This document shows positions 46,008 to 58,226 of a stretch of DNA of 64,000 nucleotides, piece after piece (positions within the stretch are counted from its first letter, which is position 1; each line of letters starts with the position of its first letter). Made by a program: the position numbers and the translations under genes. Source of the DNA: Dictyostelium discoideum (lineage: Eukaryota); assembly GCA_000004695.1 (NCBI GenBank), contig CM000152.2:3936001-4000000 (forward strand). Direction: 5' to 3'. The notes beneath the pieces are model-generated. The model was not told the origin of the DNA and made no database searches. It saw only the letters and a list, made by a program, of their open reading frames with translations.

Positions 46008-46871
46008 ATGATACAAACAACATTTTCATCATATTTAGCAGAATCTTGGAATAAAATTGGAGAAATTAAAATTTTAAAACCAGGTGGTATGACATTAGAT
46101 TTTTCGATTGATGCATTAAATTTAACGATTCCAAAATGTAAAATCAATGAAAATATAAAGATATTGGATGTTGGGGCTGGGTTTGGTGTTTTATCAATTT
46201 ATGCATCAACTAATTATCCAAATAGTGAAATTATTGCAACAGATATTTCAAAATGTATGATTGATTCATTAAATTATTCAATTCAAGGAAACCAAATAAA
46301 GAATGTCACTGCCAAAGTAATGGATGGCCAAAGTATGCCAGAGCTACAATCTGAATCATTCGATTACTGTTTTTCAATGTTTGGTTTGATTTATTTCCCT
46401 GATAGATTAAAAAGTCTTAAAGAGATGTACAGATTATTAAAATCAAATAATAATTCAAAAGTTTCAATTGGTAGTTGGCAATCTGATGCTTTCTTACCAA
46501 TGGTATTAGAGAAAACTTATGAAAAAGTAACAGTTGGTAGTAGTGGTGGTTTGAAATTGACATCAAAACAACCAGCTTTATCATTAGATGATAAAGTTTT
46601 ATTCAAGAGTGAATTGGAACAAGCTGGTTTTAAAAATGTTGAAATTCACAGTATTGGTCATCCATTAGAGGTAACAACTGAAAGTTTATCAAATTATCTT
46701 AGACCCGAAAACCCAGTTGTTGATGATTTCTTTAAACTTATTGGTGATGATAATATTAATAAATTTAAAGAAACTTTTATTAACCTAGTCTTAGAATTAT
46801 TTCCAAAAAATGAAAATGGTTTTCATATTGTTCCATGGAATTCTTATATTGGTATTGGTGAAAAATTATAG
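46008..46871 (+). CDS. class I SAM-dependent methyltransferase (Methyltransf_11/12-like), 287 aa, tandem paralog 1
   Basis: Motif I ILDVGAGFGVLSIY, acidic post-I residue (ATDIS), FDYCFSMFGLIYFPD (motif II/III region). Single exon. Confidence 0.8.
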   Translation: MIQTTFSSYLAESWNKIGEIKILKPGGMTLDFSIDALNLTIPKCKINENIKILDVGAGFGVLSIYASTNYPNSEIIATDISKCMIDSLNYSIQGNQIKNVTAKVMDGQSMPELQSESFDYCFSMFGLIYFPDRLKSLKEMYRLLKSNNNSKVSIGSWQSDAFLPMVLEKTYEKVTVGSSGGLKLTSKQPALSLDDKVLFKSELEQAGFKNVEIHSIGHPLEVTTESLSNYLRPENPVVDDFFKLIGDDNINKFKETFINLVLELFPKNENGFHIVPWNSYIGIGEKL

Positions 46872-47102: not shown

Positions 47103-47966
47103 ATGTCAATTAATTCAACATTTTCATCATATAAATCAGAAGGTTGGGATAAATTATCAGATTCAACACTTTTAAAAATTGGTGGACCAACAGAACCATT
47201 TTCAATTGATGCACTAAATTTAACGATTCCAAAAGAGAAATTGAATGAAAAGATAAGAATATTAGATATTGCAGCAGGTGTTGGTAATTTAACAATTCCA
47301 GCAAGTAGACAATTCCCAAATTCAGAGATTGTTGCAACTGATTATTCAAAATGTATGATTGATTCATTGAATTTAATAATTGAGCAAAATAAAAATAATA
47401 TTAAAAATGTTAAAACTCTAATTGTTGATGGTCAAAATATGGTAGAGATCGAATCTGAATCATTCGATTACTGTTTTTCAATGTTTGGTTTAATTTATTT
47501 CCCTGATAGGTTATCAGGTATGAAAGAGATGTATAGAATTTTAAAATCAAATAATCAATCACGTACTTCAATTGGTAGTTGGCAATCTGATGCTTTCTTA
47601 CCCTCATTATTAGAGAAAACTTATGAACAAGTAACAAGTGGTAGTGGTGGTGGTTTGAAATTAACATCAAAACAACCAGCTTTATCATTAGATGATAAAG
47701 TTTTGTTTAAGAGTGAATTGGAACAAGCTGGTTTTAAAAATGTTGTAATTCATAGTGTTAAACATATAATTAAAATCAATGATTTAGAACCATTATTATC
47801 ACCTAAAAATCCAATTGTTGATGATTTCTTTAAATTAATAAATTATGAAAATATTGATAAATTTAAAGAAACTTTTAAATCAATTGCAAATTCATTATAT
47901 AAAAAAGATGAAAATGGTAATTATTTATCTGAATGGAATTGTTTTATTGGTATTGGCGAAAAATAA
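47103..47966 (+). CDS. class I SAM-dependent methyltransferase, 287 aa, tandem paralog 2
   Basis: About 60-65% identical to the 46008 gene over the full length (ILDIAAGVGNLTIP..., FDYCFSMFGLIYFPDRL..., SIGSWQSDAFLP...KLTSKQPALSLDDKVLFKSELEQAGFKNV). Same orientation, 230 bp apart. Confidence 0.8.
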   Translation: MSINSTFSSYKSEGWDKLSDSTLLKIGGPTEPFSIDALNLTIPKEKLNEKIRILDIAAGVGNLTIPASRQFPNSEIVATDYSKCMIDSLNLIIEQNKNNIKNVKTLIVDGQNMVEIESESFDYCFSMFGLIYFPDRLSGMKEMYRILKSNNQSRTSIGSWQSDAFLPSLLEKTYEQVTSGSGGGLKLTSKQPALSLDDKVLFKSELEQAGFKNVVIHSVKHIIKINDLEPLLSPKNPIVDDFFKLINYENIDKFKETFKSIANSLYKKDENGNYLSEWNCFIGIGEK

Positions 47967-48593: not shown

Positions 48594-50192
48594 ATGATCA
48601 AAAAAAATAAATTACTAGTTTTAATAATTTTAAATTTTTTAATAAATTCTATTTGTAAGTAATAATAGAAAAAAAAAAAATATTAATAATAATAATTTAA
48701 TTAATTTTTTATTTTTATTTATTTTATTTAAAAAGATTCTGATAGACCATTAATCAATTATATTGAACCATTAACTAGAAATGATAATAAATTATCAGTG
48801 TTTGGTAGATTTTTTGGAGAGAAATTACAAGATGTTAAAGTTGAAATCGATGGTAAACCATATAAAATAAGTGAATGGAGTAATTCAAGTTTTGAAGTAA
48901 CTTTACAACCACCAAATCCAAAGCAATCAAAAATTAAAGTTACAACACCAATTAATTCTGTTGAGAAGGAGATTTACTTTTTAAATGAAAATTGTTTAGG
49001 AATTGATGTTTGTAATGGGCATGGAATATGCATTAAAAATAGTACAGAATGTGTATGTAATGAACCATGGTCTGGTAAAGATTGCTCCATAATCACTGGC
49101 GAATCTATGATAGAGTTAGTTGATAAACCTAAAGTTTACACATCAACAAAATTAAATATTTTTAAAATTCCTGAAATTGAAAATATTAATTTTAACACTA
49201 GTTTTGGATTAGTATTAAAAGAGTATACTAAGAATGATATAATTCTTAACACTTATTTATTAACGCCCTCTATTCAATATGGGAGTATAAAAGGACCAGA
49301 TTTACAAGTTTACAGATACAGAACCAATACATTAATATCTTCGTCAGATCATTCATTCAATTGTGACATCACTCTAACTCATTATCAATCTAATCAAACT
49401 AAAAGTTTCTATAATCAATATATTAATGAATTAAAAGATTCATTTGCATTGAGTGTAATAATTAATAATTTCATACCAATTTCACCAACTAATAAATTAA
49501 CATTATTCATTTATCCAATGATAAAATCAAAGAAATCATTTGGTGGTAAATTAAGTACAATTGTCAATGATAATAATAATAATAATAAAATTGATGAAAA
49601 TGATGATGGTCAATACATTAATGGTACAACAAGTATTAAAATGTCAATTGGTACTCAAAAATTAAGAATTAATCTTTATAATTTTGGTTTATTTTCTCAA
49701 AAATTTACAACTTTTAATACTTCAATTGTTGAAATTTTTAATAATACAAATAATATAAATAATACTAATAATAGTGATAGTAGTGATAATAGAGTTATTG
49801 ATAATGATATTTATTCTATAATTTCAATAACTTCAAATTCATCAAAATATATTTATTTTAATGCAGATTTTTATCCATATTTGGATGATTCTGAAAATGT
49901 AGATAGTTCTGATAAATTAACTTTATTTAGTGACGAAGAGAGTGGTAGTAGTGATAGTATTAGTAGTAGTAGTGGTAGTGGTAGCAGTAGCAGTAGTAGC
50001 AGTGATAATAATACAAGGAATATTATTGATGATAGTAAACATAATTTAACACCAACTCAAAATATTACTACCGAAGTTAATCATGAAAATCATCAAAATG
50101 AAAGTAATAGTAGTAGTAGTATTGGAAATAAATTACCAATTTCGATAATAACTTATTTTGGCCCTGTTTTTATTTTTTGGAAGTTAATTTGA
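48594..50192 (+). CDS. secreted or GPI-anchored cell-surface glycoprotein with IPT/TIG-like segment and EGF-like module (~505 aa; exons 48594..48654, 48736..50192)
   Basis: Exon 1 MIKKNKLLVLIILNFLINSI (signal peptide) ends at GTAAGT. Acceptor AAAAG|AT is in frame with the track ORF (its M is a GTG). EGF-like CLGIDVCNGHGICIKNSTECVCNEPWSGKDCS. Many NxS/T sites, Ser-rich stretch, hydrophobic C-terminus ISIITYFGPVFIFWKLI*. Confidence 0.65.
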
Positions 50193-50736: not shown

Positions 50737-51486
50737 ATGTCAAATTATAATAATAACAATAATAATATACCAATTTTAAAAAACAATGTAAAACCTCGTC
50801 AATATCAAGAAGATGCATTCAATCAATGTATTAGTAGAAATACGATTTTAGTTTTACCAACTGGTATGTATTATTATTATTTCATTTTATTTTTATTTTT
50901 AGTTTAGGTATACTAATTTATTTAATGGTTTTTTTTTTTTATTATTTAAATTTATTTAAATTTATAGGTACTGGTAAAACTTTAGTATCAATTTTAACAT
51001 TTTTAAAAATGTTTGAAATAAATGAAAAAAAAAATAATGATAAAGTTGCATTATTTTTAGTAAATAATATTTTATTAGGAAAACAACAAACCGAGACGAT
51101 AAAGAATTTAACTGATAAGAGAGTAATGGTTTTAAGTGGAGACGATTTATCATTTCAAACTAAAAAGAAAAACTATGATATAGTTGTTGCAACGCCACAG
51201 ATTTTAATGAATTTAATTAATAAGAATAAAATTAGAATTGATAATTTTCATTTCATAATTTTCGATGAAGTTCATAATGCTACTGGTTTGGATAATTATT
51301 GCAAGATCATGTCTTTAGTTAAAAATTTAGATCCACCATTTAGACCAAGAATCCTTGGTTTAACTGCATCGGTTTTAAAGAACGCTTCAAATTATACCAC
51401 TGAAAGAGCAACCAATGAAATTAAAAAGTTGGAAGATATAATGTTATCAAAAATCTATTGTCCATTAATTGAAATATTTAAAGATC

Positions 51487-51520
<34 letters not shown>

Positions 51521-54500
51521 TCATCATCATCAATCACCTAATTTTGAAATTTATGAACCATCTATTCAACAAACTAAATTAACTTCAATCATTTCAAAAT
51601 TAATCATTGATAAAACTAGATATCTCTCAAAGAAAAATGGTCATAAAGATGTAAAATTGGAACAAATTGAACTTCCAATTTTAAAATTCATTCAATCATT
51701 ATCAAGTTTAAAACCAAAATTAACTTCAGAAAGAGATTCAAGTGAATATGCTACAATCGTTAATTTATGTAATAGTTTAACAACATTATCAATTGAAGGA
51801 CCACAACAATGTTTAACTTCAATTACTGATGGTTTTGTAAATGGTATAATTTATCAACAATTAATAGATTATGATTCAGAAGAAAATCAACAACAACAAG
51901 AAGAAGAAGAAGAAGAGGAAAAAGAAGATGAAGATGATGGTATTGAAATGAAAACCAATAAATTTAAATCATTATTAAAATTATTAAGTATTGAAATTAA
52001 AGAAAATAATATAAATGATAAAATAAATTGTATTGTATTTGTTGAAACCAGAGATACTGGTAAAAAATTATTAAATCTATTAATTAGTGAGAAGGAAATC
52101 TCAAAATTAAATCCAAAATTAATCTATGGTCATAATGGTAGAAATGGTATGAAACATAGTGAACAACAACAAATCATTCAACAATTTAAAGAAGGTGTTT
52201 GTCAAGTATTGGTATCAACAAATGTATTAGAGGAAGGTATAGATATTAAAGAATGTAATTCTGTAATTTGTTTTGATAATCTTTATAGTTTAAAATCATT
52301 AATTCAACGTCGTGGTAGAGATAGAACTTGTTCATCATTTACATTAATTCTTGAACAAGATCAACGTTTAAGATTAGAGGATTTAATTAAAAGTGAAATC
52401 ATTATAAATAGATCATTAATTGATATAATGACTGATAGAATGAGACAAAAAGAATTATCTACTTCATCATCTTCAACATCTTCATCTTCATCATCATCGT
52501 CAAATAATTCAATTTCAATGGTTTCTTCTTTATCATCTTCATCATTATCACCTTCTTTATCAACATCATCAAGTGGAGTTGTAACAGATGAAGAAAATAG
52601 TATTTATGATTATCAAACTTTTTTCTTACCAATTTTCCATATTAAAGAGAATGAATATGAATCATTCAAAGAGTATTGTTTTAAATATAATATAAAATGT
52701 TCAAAAGAAGCTGCTGATATAGATGATGATAGTGATGATGATGATGAAAATGATAGTGACAGTGATAGTGATAGTGACGGTGACAGTGACAGTGATAATA
52801 ATAGTAACAGTGATAATAATAGTGATCGTGATGAAGCAATTAAATTAAAGAATGGACCATTAGTAATTTGTTCAATTGAAAAGAAAGGTAATGAATTTCA
52901 TGAACCTTATTTATCTAAATTCTTATTGTTAAATATTAAAGTTGATTCAACAGAAAAAGATACACTTATCAACAAGTTTACAATTTATTTATCAAAGAGA
53001 TTTGGATATTGGATAAATTATAGTCATTATATTGATGCAATAGAATTAGATAATGAACAAGAGATTAACAATACCTTTGAATTGGTTAAAGAGACCTCTA
53101 GACCATCAGAGGCAAAAACTAAATTTGAATTTGGTAATATTTTAAATTCACCACCATTACAATTCAATAAAGTCGATCATTTCAATTCTAATATCGAATC
53201 AATTATCATTAGAAAAGATCATATAGTATTTAAGAGTGTTCAAAATAGTAGTGGTAATATTTATTATCTTCATCATATGTCATGTCGTGATGTTGAACAA
53301 TATTGTCTATACACTCCCCCAACTTTAATTAGAACGGGTAGTTCAAAGTTAACAAACTCTTATGACTTTTATTTCTTGGTTATTAGACCTATAACATTGG
53401 TTAGAGTAAAATATGATTGTAAATCAAAGAGAACCTTTACAGATGAAATAGAAATTGAAAATAAAAATTTTGGTAGATCTTTTGTTTATAAATTCACAAT
53501 TAATTTAAATTTTGAAAAAGTTAATAGATTACTATCACAATTAAAATATATTGGTTTTGATTTATATTTATTTAGAAATGTTAATAATAATGAAAATAAT
53601 AATAATAATAATAATAACAATACTAATAAAAATATTAATAGTAATAATATTATTATTAATAATAATAATAATAATAATGGTAATAATATAAATAATATTA
53701 ATAATGGTAATGAATTAAATTTTCAAAATATTAATAATGAAGAAATTTATTACTTAATTAATTCATTAAATTCAGAAAGATCCTTTGGTAGAATTATAAA
53801 TCAAGATTTTGTAAATCAAATTATTGATTTATTAAAATCAAATAGAATTGAAGAAGCAAGATATATTATTGGTGTTGCATCAACAAAGAAAACAAAATTC
53901 TTTGATTATTCAAAATTATTTAAAAAAGTAATTTCTTTAAATGGTAATTTTAATAATATTGATAGTGGTGATATTAATGATAATAATAATGGAAATTATA
54001 ATATTATTGAAGAATTATATAAAGATAAACCAATACAATCAAATAATGGTTGGGTATTAATTAATGAAATATTTGTAACACCATCAAGAATTGTATTAAA
54101 ACCACCAAGATTAACATTGGGTAATAGAATTTTACGTAAATTTTCACCAGAGAAATTCATTTTATTCAATTTTACAGATGAAAATTTAGAACCATTTAGA
54201 GGTTTAAATAAAAGTTCACCATTAACAAAAACAATTGAAAGAATCTTTAATAATGGTATTGAAATCATTCAAGGATCTGGTAAGAAATACTTTTTCATTG
54301 GTTGTTCTCAATCTCAAGTTAGAAATTATTCAGCATGGTTTGTATTGGAAGATAAAGTTACCAATGAAAAATCGGCATTAAATTGGAGTGGTATAAAATA
54401 TGAATCACTTCAAATGATAAAAGTATTTAGAAATCTTTGTTTATTATTTTCCACCACTTTAAAATCTCAAGTTATCTATAAAATTGAAATGATACCTGAT

Positions 54501-56586
54501 ATTATCTCAAAGGAAGGTCATAATTTTACAGAAGGTTGTGGTTTCATTGGTTCTAAATTAGTGGAATTAATTAATCAACAAAATAATTACAACTCAAGTA
54601 CTTGTGCCTATCAAATTAGACTTGGTGGTTCAAAAGGTGTTTTAGTATTAAATGAAAATATAGATGAAATGTCACTTCAAATTAGACCAAGTATGAGTAA
54701 ATTCGAATTGGATTACAAAAGTGGTCAATTAGATGAAGAACATAAAACATTGGAAATCGTATCGGCATCAACTACAAGTAGATGTAAACTCAATAGACAA
54801 GCCATTACATTATTATCGAATGCAGGTGTTGAAGATTCAACTTTTCTTCAAATGTTAGAGGTGGAGTTAAATCAAAACGCTCAAACATTGGTTGATGTTA
54901 ATCTTTCAAAAGAACTTTTAGGTGATTTCTTTCAACATATTACAGAATATGAACTATTCAATGATTACTATATTAGAAGTATTCTTTTAAAACTTTATAA
55001 ATCAAAGTTAATTAAAATTCAAGATAAATGTTGGATCGAAGTAAAAGAGAGTAGAAATCTATTGGGTGTTTGTGATACATCTGGTACTTTACCAGAAGAT
55101 ACTGTCTATATTGAAGTTGAAGAATTAGATCCAATCGATAATTTAATGAAACCAAAGGTTATAATTGGTAGAGTCGCAGTTTTAAAGAATCCATGTCATC
55201 ATCCTGGTGATGTTAGATTCTTGAAAGCAATTGATCATCCACCACTCAATGGTAAAAGAAATGTATTATTCTTTTCAACAAATGGTATGGTACCAAATTT
55301 CAAACAATGTTCAGGATCAGATTTAGATGGTGATAGATATTTCGTAATTTATGATCAAACTTTAATTAGAGAAGATTTAATAACTCATGAACCTTATTTA
55401 GGTGAAGAACAAACTGTAAATCCACTCATTGGTGAAGAAGATAGTGATGATGATCAATATGAAAATGATGATAATGATATTACCATTCCAACTTCAACAA
55501 CTACAAAATCAACCAATAACACTCCCACTAAACTATCGGATATTTATTTAAAAAATGTTGATAAATCAAAATTAGGTACAATTTCAAATACACATTTAGC
55601 CATCTCTGATATTGAAAAAGTTTCAAGTATAAACTCAATAAAAGTTGCAATTCAATGTGCAATCGAAGTTGACTCTGTAAAAACCTCTGTTCATGGTATA
55701 ATTCCACGTGATGTAAAATCAATACTCAAAGAGAAAGGTTATCCTCACTTTATGAAAATTAAAAATGGTTCCACTTTTGAATATAAAGGTGGCAATCAAA
55801 GAAAATATTATATCAGTGATCGTGTTATTGGTAAAATCTATGATTCTGCAGAGAATTTATTATGGTTTGGTGACTTCTTACCAGAGGCAAAAGTCGATGA
55901 ATCTTTATTGGTCCAAGGATACAAAGAGTATCTAAACCATGAAAACTTTACAACCTATATGGATTATAAATCTAAAATCAATTCAATACTTAGAAGATTT
56001 GGTGCTCAAAGTGAAGAAGATCTTTTAATTGGTTTTATGGATCCACAATTTAGTGAAAAATTATCAATTGAAGCTAAAGCTCATTTCAAATCAAACTATA
56101 ATTCAATTCAAAAACTTTTCTATCATAATTTCTTAAATGAATTTAGAAAGAAATCAAATAATAATAATAATAATAATAATAATTTATCAATGTTACAAAT
56201 TGAAGAAGAGGAAGAATTAATCAATGAAAACTATACAGAAATTGAAAAGAAAGTTTGTGCTTGGTATTTCATCTCTTATTCAGATCCTGAAAATGATAAA
56301 ACTTTAGGTTTCTATAGATCAGTTAAAGGTTTATTAAAAACTACTGAAATTAATAATTTTGAAACTCAAAAACATAATGATAAAAAACCTTTAAATTTAA
56401 GTATTCTATCTTTTGCTAAAGAAATGAAAGATACATTACTTTTTGGTTATCAAGAAAAACTTTTAATATTTGATGAAATTAAAGAAATCTTAAATGATCA
56501 TTTATTGGAAAATCAACTAAATGATCATTTCATTTTTAATTTATTATTTTCTGGTCAACAACAAAATAATAATCATCAACAAGAAG

Positions 56587-56623
<37 letters not shown>

Positions 56624-57698
56624 GCAACAACAAGAAGAAGAAGATGTAGAACAATCTAATATACCAAGTTTTTATTTATATCTACAACCTTTAGAGAATG
56701 AAATAGAAAATGAAAAACTTTTATTGGTATTAAAAGAAAAGTTGGAATCATCATTCTCAAATAATCTCTTTGAAATTATTAAAATTACATCAACTATATT
56801 AGAATTTGAATTCAAAAAAATTAAGTTTATCATTGATTTCAATTCAAATAGTTGGTATCAATCAAAAGTAATTTCTTTATATATAACTAAACATCCATCT
56901 TTAGTACCAACTTTATTAGTTATAATTGAACATATTAAAAATATATCATTACTATTAAATTCAAATAAAAATACAACAACAACAACAACAACAACAACAA
57001 CTTCAACTACTACAACAACAACAACAATAAGTTATAATAATAATAATAATATTAAAGAAAAAATTGAAAATTTTTCAATTTCACCAATTGGTTTAGTTAT
57101 TTTATTTATTAGATATGCAATTGAAAATGGTTTAATTAAGGAATTTGAAGAAAGTGATATCGAATTTGAATTATCAAATAATAATAATAATATTTATAGC
57201 TATGAAGATTTAAAAGATTTATTAAAAATAGAATGTGAAGTTGGTCAAAGTGATAATCTTCTTGGTTTCTATAGATATTACTCTGAGATTTTCCTTTTGG
57301 GTGTTTATAGTAAAAAAGAATCATTCAAATTGAAATCTTTTGGAAAATCAAGCATTGGTGTCGATAATGAAGTAACCATTACAAATGATCCTCAGCAACT
57401 TTCATTATTAAGCTCTCAATTTAAATTTGCATACAATGGAATTTGTGCAACAGTAAATGTTCATAAATTCTTGGATAGTTGTTTAATCATATCAAAGAGA
57501 TCCATTTTAATACAAATTGGTGTCGATCAAATTGATAATCTTATAAAGAATCAATTGGCCATAAGAGAATCAATCGAACTTTTAAATGTTTCCATTCAAT
57601 TCATTTATAATTCACCAAAATCTTGCACCATTGACATAAATGGTTTACCAAATCGATTAACAAAAGCTCGTGATAAAATTAGAGAGTTTCTCAAATAA
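50737..57698 (+). CDS. RNA-dependent RNA polymerase with N-terminal DExH helicase domain (rrp family, ~2285 aa; exons 50737..50863, 50968..57698)
   Basis: Exon 1 MSNYNNNNNNIPILKNNVKPRQYQEDAFNQCISRNTILVLPTG|GTATGT. Exon 2 (G)TGKTLVSI... completes Walker A (PTGTGKT). Helicase motifs II FDEVHNATG, V VLVSTNVLEEGIDIKECNSVICFD, VI QRRGRDR. Eukaryotic RdRP catalytic block VLKNPCHHPGDVRFLKAIDHPPLNGKRNVLFFSTNG...CSGSDLDGDRYFVIYDQ (DLDGD at ~55319-55333). Which paralog (rrpA/rrpB/rrpC-dosA) cannot be told from sequence alone. Confidence 0.9.
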
Positions 57699-57885
57699 AT
57701 AAATATAAAATATATAATAATTGTTGTTTATTTCCTTTAATTGATAATTAATAGTTTTATTTATGAATTTTAATTAAGATGTAAATTAGTTATTCTTTTT
57801 CAATCATAGATATCTATCTTATCTAAAAATTGAGACGATTGTTTGAGAATTGAACCCTTATACTGATTTGAAACTTAAATAAAAA

Positions 57886-57958
57886 TGGAGAAGAAGGGTA
57901 TCGATCCCTTTACCTCTCGCATGCTAAGCGAGCGCTCTACCATCTGAGCTACATCCCC
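57886..57958 (-). tRNA. tRNA-Ala (anticodon AGC)
   Basis: Reverse complement GGGGATGTAGCTCAGATGGTAGAGCGCTCGCTTAGCATGCGAGAGGTAAAGGGATCGATACCCTTCTTCTCCA folds as a cloverleaf with G3:U70 and A73 (Ala identity elements), anticodon loop CTTAGCATG, D-loop GG18/19. Followed by a T-run terminator. One acceptor mismatch (T6:T67) and A54 in the T-loop, so it may be a variant or weakly degenerate copy. Confidence 0.8.
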
Positions 57959-58226
57959 TTTGATGATTTTTAAATTTATGACAACAAAAATTTATATAAA
58001 ATTATTTCACAATTGATTGTTCACAATCCTAAATAATTAGTTTTTAATTTTAAAATTTAAAATTATTTCGGAAACTCACACAAAATAAAATAACTAAAAA
58101 AAATTCAAATTTTAATTTTTTTATTTATAAATTTTATCCAAAACGATTATAATTTCTCATATTTCCGTTTCTTCGTTTTTTTTTTTTTTAATTTCTCATA
58201 ATTTCATTGCTTCGTTTTTTTAAAAA

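Follow-up and report, generated by a model that had tools for sequence, protein, structure and literature searches.

The Dictyostelium discoideum helicase-RdRP gene rrpC, with an intron in its P-loop, a tRNA-Ala neighbour and a putative degenerate nucleotidyltransferase at its C-terminus

The 64,000-nucleotide stretch of D. discoideum DNA analysed here (contig CM000152.2, positions 3,936,001 to 4,000,000; hereafter the window) contains on its plus strand, at 50737..57698, a gene for a protein of 2285 aa, in which a helicase is fused to an RdRP (RNA-dependent RNA polymerase). We identify this gene by its sequence as rrpC, formerly dosA, and neither as rrpA nor as rrpB. The three genes together make up the helicase-RdRP set of D. 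discoideum. In our opinion, it is almost certain that the locus as a whole is best explained by a multidomain silencing enzyme, RrpC, with the workings proposed below, an ordinary inherited intron, and an independent, normal tRNA gene next to it. rrpC already has a name, and in this model organism it has been knocked out and investigated several times; the finding in itself matters little, as it amounts to a known gene with an ordinary P-loop intron and an ordinary tRNA neighbour. The assignment of domains in the C-terminal part of the protein is a modest, checkable addition to this knowledge.

The identity of the gene is indicated foremost by the primers #0028 and #0029, published by Wiegand and Hammann in 2013 for an rrpC-specific Southern probe (Table 1 in PMC3661229). 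With the restriction sites removed before matching, they are identical to the window in 26/26 nt at 55926..55951 (plus strand) and 29/29 nt at 56668..56696 (minus strand), i.e. in 55/55 nt, in convergent orientation, and bound a stretch of 771 bp (55926..56696, plus strand). The best homolog of the window protein is a protein from D. purpureum (P0001, 45% identity), followed by an rrpA/B-type protein of D. discoideum (P0002, 35% identity), at whose locus the published rrpA/B primers match, one with 1 mismatch and the other with 0. The latter level of identity agrees with the published comparison, according to which RrpA and RrpB are 94% identical to each other, while RrpC shares 35% identity with both across 65% of the length (PMC3661229). 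In the neighbor-joining (NJ) tree the window protein and P0001 are grouped with 100% bootstrap support, and RrpA/B is the sister of this pair (97%). Moreover, synteny extends to the EGF-like gene immediately upstream of the locus (48798..50192), which has its counterpart upstream of the ortholog in D. purpureum (tblastn E 2.6e-71). The exact primer matches, taken together with the identity levels, the synteny and the tree, therefore assign the gene to D. discoideum rrpC, accession DDB_G0280963 (PMC3950715). The preliminary description, made from the letters of the window, had placed the gene in the RrpA/RrpB/RrpC family and had left the choice of the paralog to further comparison; the family is supported by Pfam matches to both the helicase and the RdRP profiles, the lack of which had been named as the observation that would overturn the proposal, and the paralog can now be specified.

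The N-terminal lobe of the helicase (ResIII/DEAD, aa 18-182, 50788..51386, interrupted by the intron; Pfam E 7.5e-23 and 1.3e-22, respectively) contains motif I, PTGTGKT (aa 41-47), and motif II, DEVH (aa 142-145, 51264..51275), while motif VI, QRRGRDR (aa 489-495, 52305..52325), straddles the C-terminal edge of the second lobe (Helicase_C, aa 374-493, 51960..52319; Pfam E 1.1e-18). Both RecA-like lobes and the motifs I, II and VI, found by a motif scan, are thus present, as in a Dicer/RLR-type SF2 DExH helicase; here and below, all parts of the gene lie on the plus strand. Following other helicase-RdRP proteins, the best matches of this region are the helicase domains of Dicer, Dcr-2 and DCL proteins from animals and fungi (E 5e-31 to 1e-15), hence "Dicer-like", as it had been called, is a fair name. 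RDR-linked helicases form a clade of their own in a published phylogeny (PMC4791657), and the similarity to Dicer fits the published division of labor in Dictyostelium, where the Dicers have no helicase and the RdRPs carry one (PMC4894637, PMC2175303). The catalytic domain of the eukaryotic RdRPs (PF05183, aa 1079-1669, 54075..55847) is matched with E 9.6e-126, with 421 bits against the cut-off of 23.8 and over positions 1-581 of the 582 in the profile. It includes the catalytic DLDGD loop noticed earlier (aa 1494-1498, 55320..55334), found by the motif scan within SGSDLDGDRYF. Between the helicase and the RdRP lies a region predicted to be rich in beta-structure and containing poly-Asn tracts, one of them at ~53595..53700 (aa 665-1085, 52833..54095 for the whole region), for which no significant match in the PDB was found by sequence. 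With low confidence, a weak structural model suggests a PH-like fold and a likeness to maize RDR2 in its N-terminal part. Unlike RrpC, the plant RDR2 and RDR6 and the Neurospora QDE-1, which share PF05183, are not fused to a helicase, a nucleotidyltransferase or a KH domain.

The functional papers on rrpC (PMC3661229, PMC3950715, PMC7192593, PMC2175303) describe the helicase and the RdRP and do not mention the C-terminal parts. The residues ~1850-2285, about a fifth of RrpC, which had been treated as featureless, appear to comprise a decayed nucleotidyltransferase and a KH-like domain. The former (~aa 1849-2155, 56385..57305) exhibits the GLD-2/Cid1-type non-canonical nucleotidyltransferase fold, with a Pol-beta-like palm and a PAP-associated lobe, broken up by poly-Gln and poly-Thr tracts and without the catalytic GS...DxD...D residues. 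The latter (aa 2216-2285, 57486..57695) has the beta-alpha-alpha-beta-beta-alpha topology of the type-I KH fold, in which the GXXG loop is not conserved: the corresponding residues are IGVDQ in the window protein and IGKYQ in D. purpureum, while in the rrpA/B type Gly is missing from this loop.

The Pfam scan of the window protein did not reveal any C-terminal domain, and a direct scan with PF22600 (the MTPAP-like nucleotidyltransferase palm) gave no match to it; the homology surfaced only through profiles of homologs and comparison of structures. In some homologs a match to this family was already precomputed; the direct scan with PF22600 did detect it in the rrpA/B-type protein, with E 1.5e-6, and in one from Acytostelium, with E 2.2e-11, and the last ~490 residues of the window protein are collinear with the PF22600-bearing regions (BLASTP E 2e-11 and 3e-16). 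Further, a profile built from nine sequences of the C-terminal region matches the solved structures of GLD-2 (E 1.9e-7), Trf4, CutA and terminal uridylyltransferases, with the "head" of RDR2 matched at its start and, weakly, a KH domain of vigilin at its end.

In Acytostelium the whole catalytic signature is preserved and reads GSSSLMLFDPSQSDLDLYL ... CDIS. In D. purpureum and in rrpA/B the DxD is replaced by NLN, and rrpC has in addition lost the GS turn and acquired a poly-Gln insertion. At the catalytic columns of the hG[GS]...DxD...D/E signature, the profile alignment places gap/gap, QxN and I of the window protein, and in the alternative alignment by MAFFT the window protein has SFYLYL at the place of SDLDLYL. 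The RrpC region is ~10-16% identical to the non-canonical poly(A)/(U) polymerases GLD-2, Cid1 and Trf4, and differs from them in having neither the hG[GS] turn nor any of the three catalytic carboxylates in register. We infer that the C-terminal nucleotidyltransferase of RrpC is a pseudo-enzyme. The homologs from elsewhere still look catalytically competent in this region. The assignment offers targets for truncation and rescue in RrpC and, through comparison with these homologs, a way to approach the joining of RdRP, helicase and tailing activities in the amplification of small interfering RNAs (siRNAs).

To determine how widespread this architecture is, a profile of the C-terminal module was compared with 1.84 billion representative sequences, which returned 342 proteins at E <= 1e-3, and the domain content was analysed in 57 of them with at least 1500 aa. 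All 57 contain the RdRP, 43 of the 57 also possess both helicase lobes, i.e. the combination of helicase, RdRP and nucleotidyltransferase, and the GS...DxD...D/E residues are kept in 41 of the 57. From these counts it follows that the helicase-RdRP-nucleotidyltransferase(-KH) arrangement, as judged by profile matches, is common. It is in Dictyostelium that the copies are degenerate.

This picture invites comparison with the RDRC (RNA-directed RNA polymerase complex) of Schizosaccharomyces pombe, which brings together the same three kinds of modules as RrpC, namely the cellular RdRP Rdp1, the SF2 helicase Hrr1 and the Cid1-family nucleotidyltransferase Cid12. However, the S. pombe modules are three subunits, whereas those of RrpC are parts of one polypeptide, in which the catalytic residues of the nucleotidyltransferase are missing. 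The former cooperate in siRNA amplification against repeats, while for the latter only the co-occurrence of domains is known. According to the literature RrpC acts post-transcriptionally, unlike the RDRC, and its likeness to Hrr1 and Cid12 is one of module kind. It is possible, even if we would not quite favor this view over its opposite, that the Rrp proteins represent a widespread, little-described class of single-chain "RDRC-like" enzymes, which combine a Dicer-type helicase and a cellular RdRP with a KH domain and a nucleotidyltransferase of the GLD-2/Cid1 type. In most members from public genomes and metagenomes the active site of the nucleotidyltransferase would be intact, and in the lineage of D. 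discoideum this module would have become a pseudo-enzyme, with the decay having proceeded furthest in rrpC. If so, the coupling of RdRP and 3'-end tailing would be ancestral, and Dictyostelium would keep a structural or RNA-binding remnant of it. Earlier knowledge of this seems confined to the legend of a figure in a 2023 preprint, which mentions an automatically called PAP_NTPase domain in two amoebozoan RdRPs; in the literature, to which our access was incomplete, we found no paper that ties a nucleotidyltransferase domain to RrpC or draws the analogy to the S. pombe RDRC.

Genetically, RrpC is known to keep the centromeric retrotransposon DIRS-1 silent at the post-transcriptional level: upon its loss the DIRS-1 transcripts increase and the DIRS-1 siRNAs decrease, the 5' spreading (transitivity) of a hairpin-triggered signal is abolished, the DIRS-1 cDNA accumulates and the element retrotransposes, and the small RNAs of Skipper increase (PMC3950715, PMC3661229, PMC7192593, PMC2175303). 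The product of rrpC is organized, from the N-terminus, into a Dicer/RLR-type DExH helicase, a putative beta-rich RDR2-like region, the RdRP core, a degenerate nucleotidyltransferase and a KH-like domain. We propose that the RdRP core, for whose activity the genetic evidence is indirect, would copy the targeted transcripts into double-stranded RNA by synthesis of the complementary strand, and that this RNA would then be processed by the Dicer-like nucleases of Dictyostelium. The fused helicase could provide the ATP-driven handling of RNA for these helicase-less nucleases, and the C-terminal pseudo-nucleotidyltransferase together with the divergent KH domain may bind RNA or partners, or serve as a scaffold, rather than tail 3' ends.

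Several points weigh against this explanation. The rrpC literature yielded no biochemical work on the domains of RrpC or on its RNA-synthesis activity, and the roles of the helicase, the pseudo-nucleotidyltransferase and the KH-like domain are ones that we infer. The two AlphaFold2 (AF2) models are of modest confidence, with mean pLDDT of 59 and 58. The length of 2285 aa and the single intron are based on the structure of the open reading frame (ORF) and on homology, and no text source was found to give this length. Finally, an exact look-up of the 2285-aa protein in a collection of 15 billion sequences did not find it, and there was no D. discoideum RrpC entry, nor any near-identical one, among the homologs returned by the protein search, although the D. 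discoideum rrpA/B-type protein, which comes from a recent assembly, was among them. The last two observations, together with the 45% identity to the best match from D. purpureum, would be expected if the DNA came from a closely related species of Dictyostelium and carried an ortholog of rrpC rather than the D. discoideum gene itself. We regard this as very improbable, as agreement in 55/55 primer nucleotides is hardly to be expected at the synonymous sites of a diverged, AT-rich and fast-evolving gene, and as the missing match has a simpler explanation in an entry for this organism that the collection lacks or withholds; a very close sister species or another strain would be a remote possibility.

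The tRNA gene in the vicinity of rrpC is a 73-nt tRNA-Ala(AGC) on the minus strand (57886..57958), predicted by ARAGORN and by Rfam RF00005 (58.1 bits against the gathering score of 29). It folds into a cloverleaf with the G3:U70 pair, in which positions 6:67 form a single U:U mismatch. It is directly followed on its 3' side by a run of five T residues (57881..57885, minus strand), which we read as the terminator of RNA polymerase III (Pol III). At 31-39 nt downstream of the tRNA there is an external B box, GTTCAATTC (57847..57855, minus strand), which perfectly matches GTTCRAnYC, the published consensus of the external box found ~41 bp downstream of 66% of the D. discoideum tRNA genes (PMC3159450); including this one, there are 3 matches to the consensus in the 64-kb window. 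The internal T-loop, GGGATCGATACCC, mismatches the GTTCRAnYC core, and for this reason the external box may matter for the binding of TFIIIC.

The tRNA gene is convergent with rrpC, with 187 nt from the stop codon to the tRNA 3' end, as compared to the ~190 bp given earlier, and 268 nt beyond its 5' end (270 bp in the preliminary description) begins a gene for a Methyltransf_16-type protein (ATG 58227), which is divergent from it. These flanks had been described as unoccupied, and they can be so called because they are short, devoid of ORFs and, except for one 39-nt tandem duplication, of notable repeats; at 187 and 268 nt they are too short for a full-length retroelement, which excludes complete copies of TRE or DGLT-A. 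The duplication (58147..58221; two T-rich copies, 86% identical) lies directly upstream of ATG 58227. tRNA genes are the targets of TRE and DGLT-A, with TRE found at 61% of those in D. discoideum and ~39% being without (PMC5006619), so that an empty flank is ordinary.

We also looked for tRNA genes beside five homolog loci, including that of the D. purpureum ortholog, and found none in flanks of 2-3 kb on each side; the adjacency of rrpC and tRNA-Ala is therefore not conserved and can be regarded as incidental. [quoted passage not shown] We give this idea very little credence, not only for the lack of tRNA genes near the homologs, but also for the commonness of the external B box and of TRE-free tRNA genes in D. 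discoideum, and for the gene density of the genome, in which such neighbours are expected by chance. tRNA-Ala is, in our reading, an independent, normal Pol III gene and an ordinary neighbour of rrpC.

The gene model of rrpC extends from the ATG at 50737 to the TAA stop that ends at 57698. Exon 1 (50737..50863, 127 nt, i.e. 42 codons and 1 nt) encodes the N-terminus, homologous to that of the D. purpureum ortholog P0001, with the Q-motif region (KPRQYQ), followed by LVLPT and the first nucleotide of Gly43, where motif I starts. Exon 2 (50968..57698, including the stop) is one uninterrupted ORF, collinear over its full length with the homologs and consistent with a single intron, which cannot be proven without cDNA. 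The spliced coding sequence of 6858 nt has no internal stops and gives 2285 codons, exactly the number proposed before. The size of the intron, 104 nt, also stands (50864..50967; phase 1, 9.6% GC), and so, as far as the ORF structure and the homology go, does its description as the only one. The intron is bordered by GTATGT...TATAG, and if it is left unspliced, the reading of exon 1 runs into immediate stop codons. It does fall inside the P-loop, where it cuts the codon of Gly43 (G/GT, with the slash marking a splice site) in helicase motif I, L-P-T-G-T-G-K-T, at the junction ...CCA ACT G / GTATGT...TTTATAG / GT ACT GGT AAA ACT...; the earlier notation, PTG/GTGKT, contained one G too many (LPT-G-TGKT), while the rest of the preliminary description was accurate. 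The GC content of the rrpC region is 10-30%. Such extreme AT-richness is expected for a dictyostelid.

One could imagine a gene without any intron, since an uninterrupted ORF (50925..57698) opens with an in-frame ATG at 50925, within the intron, and would yield a protein of 2257 aa. Such a product would begin with MVFFFYYLNLFKFIGTGKT, and both the Q-motif region and the LVLPT part of motif I would be missing from it, whereas exon 1 supplies precisely these residues, with clear homology to the ortholog (KPRQYQEDAF...LVLPTG vs KPHNYQIEAF...IVLPTG). The intron borders are canonical (GTATGT/TAG), and an intron occurs almost at this position in orthologs. We consider this model extremely unlikely and rejected it for the loss of the conserved KPRQYQ...LVLPT, which is common to all homologs.

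The comparison of the P-loop intron among paralogs, suggested in the preliminary description, was carried out by mapping introns at the genomic loci of five homologs, and gave a mixed result. The intron is absent from the rrpA/B type of D. discoideum, which has a single intron at aa 758, and from two Acytostelium homologs, which have introns elsewhere. It is present, in phase 1 and in the second Gly codon (PTGT-G-KT), in the D. purpureum ortholog (L001 3167..3245, 79 nt, ...ACT GGT ACA G/gtaaat...ctag/GT AAA) and in the T. lacteum homolog (L003 2152..2238, 87 nt, ...ACT GGA ATG G/gtagga...atag/GT AAA). The rrpC intron, likewise of phase 1, resides in the first Gly codon (PT-G-TGKT, ...ACT G/gtatgt...atag/GT ACT GGT AAA), exactly 6 nt upstream of this position, with GTACTG as the offset block, so that the intron seems to have slid by a short distance. 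In the simple NJ tree the T. lacteum protein, whose gene has the intron, branches outside the group of rrpC and rrpA/B; on the simplest reading, therefore, the P-loop intron is ancestral, with retention along the lineage of rrpC and loss from rrpA/B. It would then be an ordinary spliceosomal intron from the dictyostelid ancestor of the rrpC lineage. We see no functional significance in its position. An intron within the P-loop codons is not unusual in this compact genome.

RrpA and RrpB resemble RrpC in the overall order of domains, namely the helicase, the RDR N-terminal region, the RdRP, the nucleotidyltransferase-like fold, in which the DxD is lost, and the KH-like domain. They differ in that the nucleotidyltransferase is still detectable with Pfam, the P-loop intron is absent, the sequences are 35% identical to RrpC, and there is an N-terminal extension of ~250 aa with pairs of CxxC. 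The genetics is also different, with rrpA being needed for the RNAi of transgenes and rrpC for the control of DIRS-1. The notion that the window gene is itself one of the 94%-identical pair rrpA/rrpB, which have the same helicase-RdRP architecture, has a practically negligible probability, and is ruled out by the location of the rrpC primer sites in the window and of the rrpA/B sites at the P0002 locus, and by the low identity to P0002, with the lack of the ~250-aa extension and the different placement of the intron arguing in the same direction.

The N-terminal extension, in which CxxC motifs occur in pairs (CSNC...C..EC), measures ~100-250 aa and is found in the rrpA/B-type P0002 (aa 1-250, L002 3001..3750) as well as in some other dictyostelid homologs, P0004 and P0005. 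It gives no match in Pfam and is absent from RrpC and its D. purpureum ortholog; it looks like a zinc-binding domain. At the opposite end, the Acytostelium proteins P0005 (aa ~2200-2629) and P0006 (aa ~2060-2494) share a conserved extension of ~430 aa beyond the KH-like domain, in which we identified no domain and which the Dictyostelium proteins do not have.

With respect to the other ORFs of the window, two of 375 aa were considered as a duplicate pair and rejected, as their sequences are unrelated. On the other hand, two adjacent ORFs on the plus strand (46008..46871 and 47103..47966), each of 287 aa, both encode class-I S-adenosylmethionine (SAM) methyltransferases (Methyltransf_25/11), and they probably arose by a tandem gene duplication.

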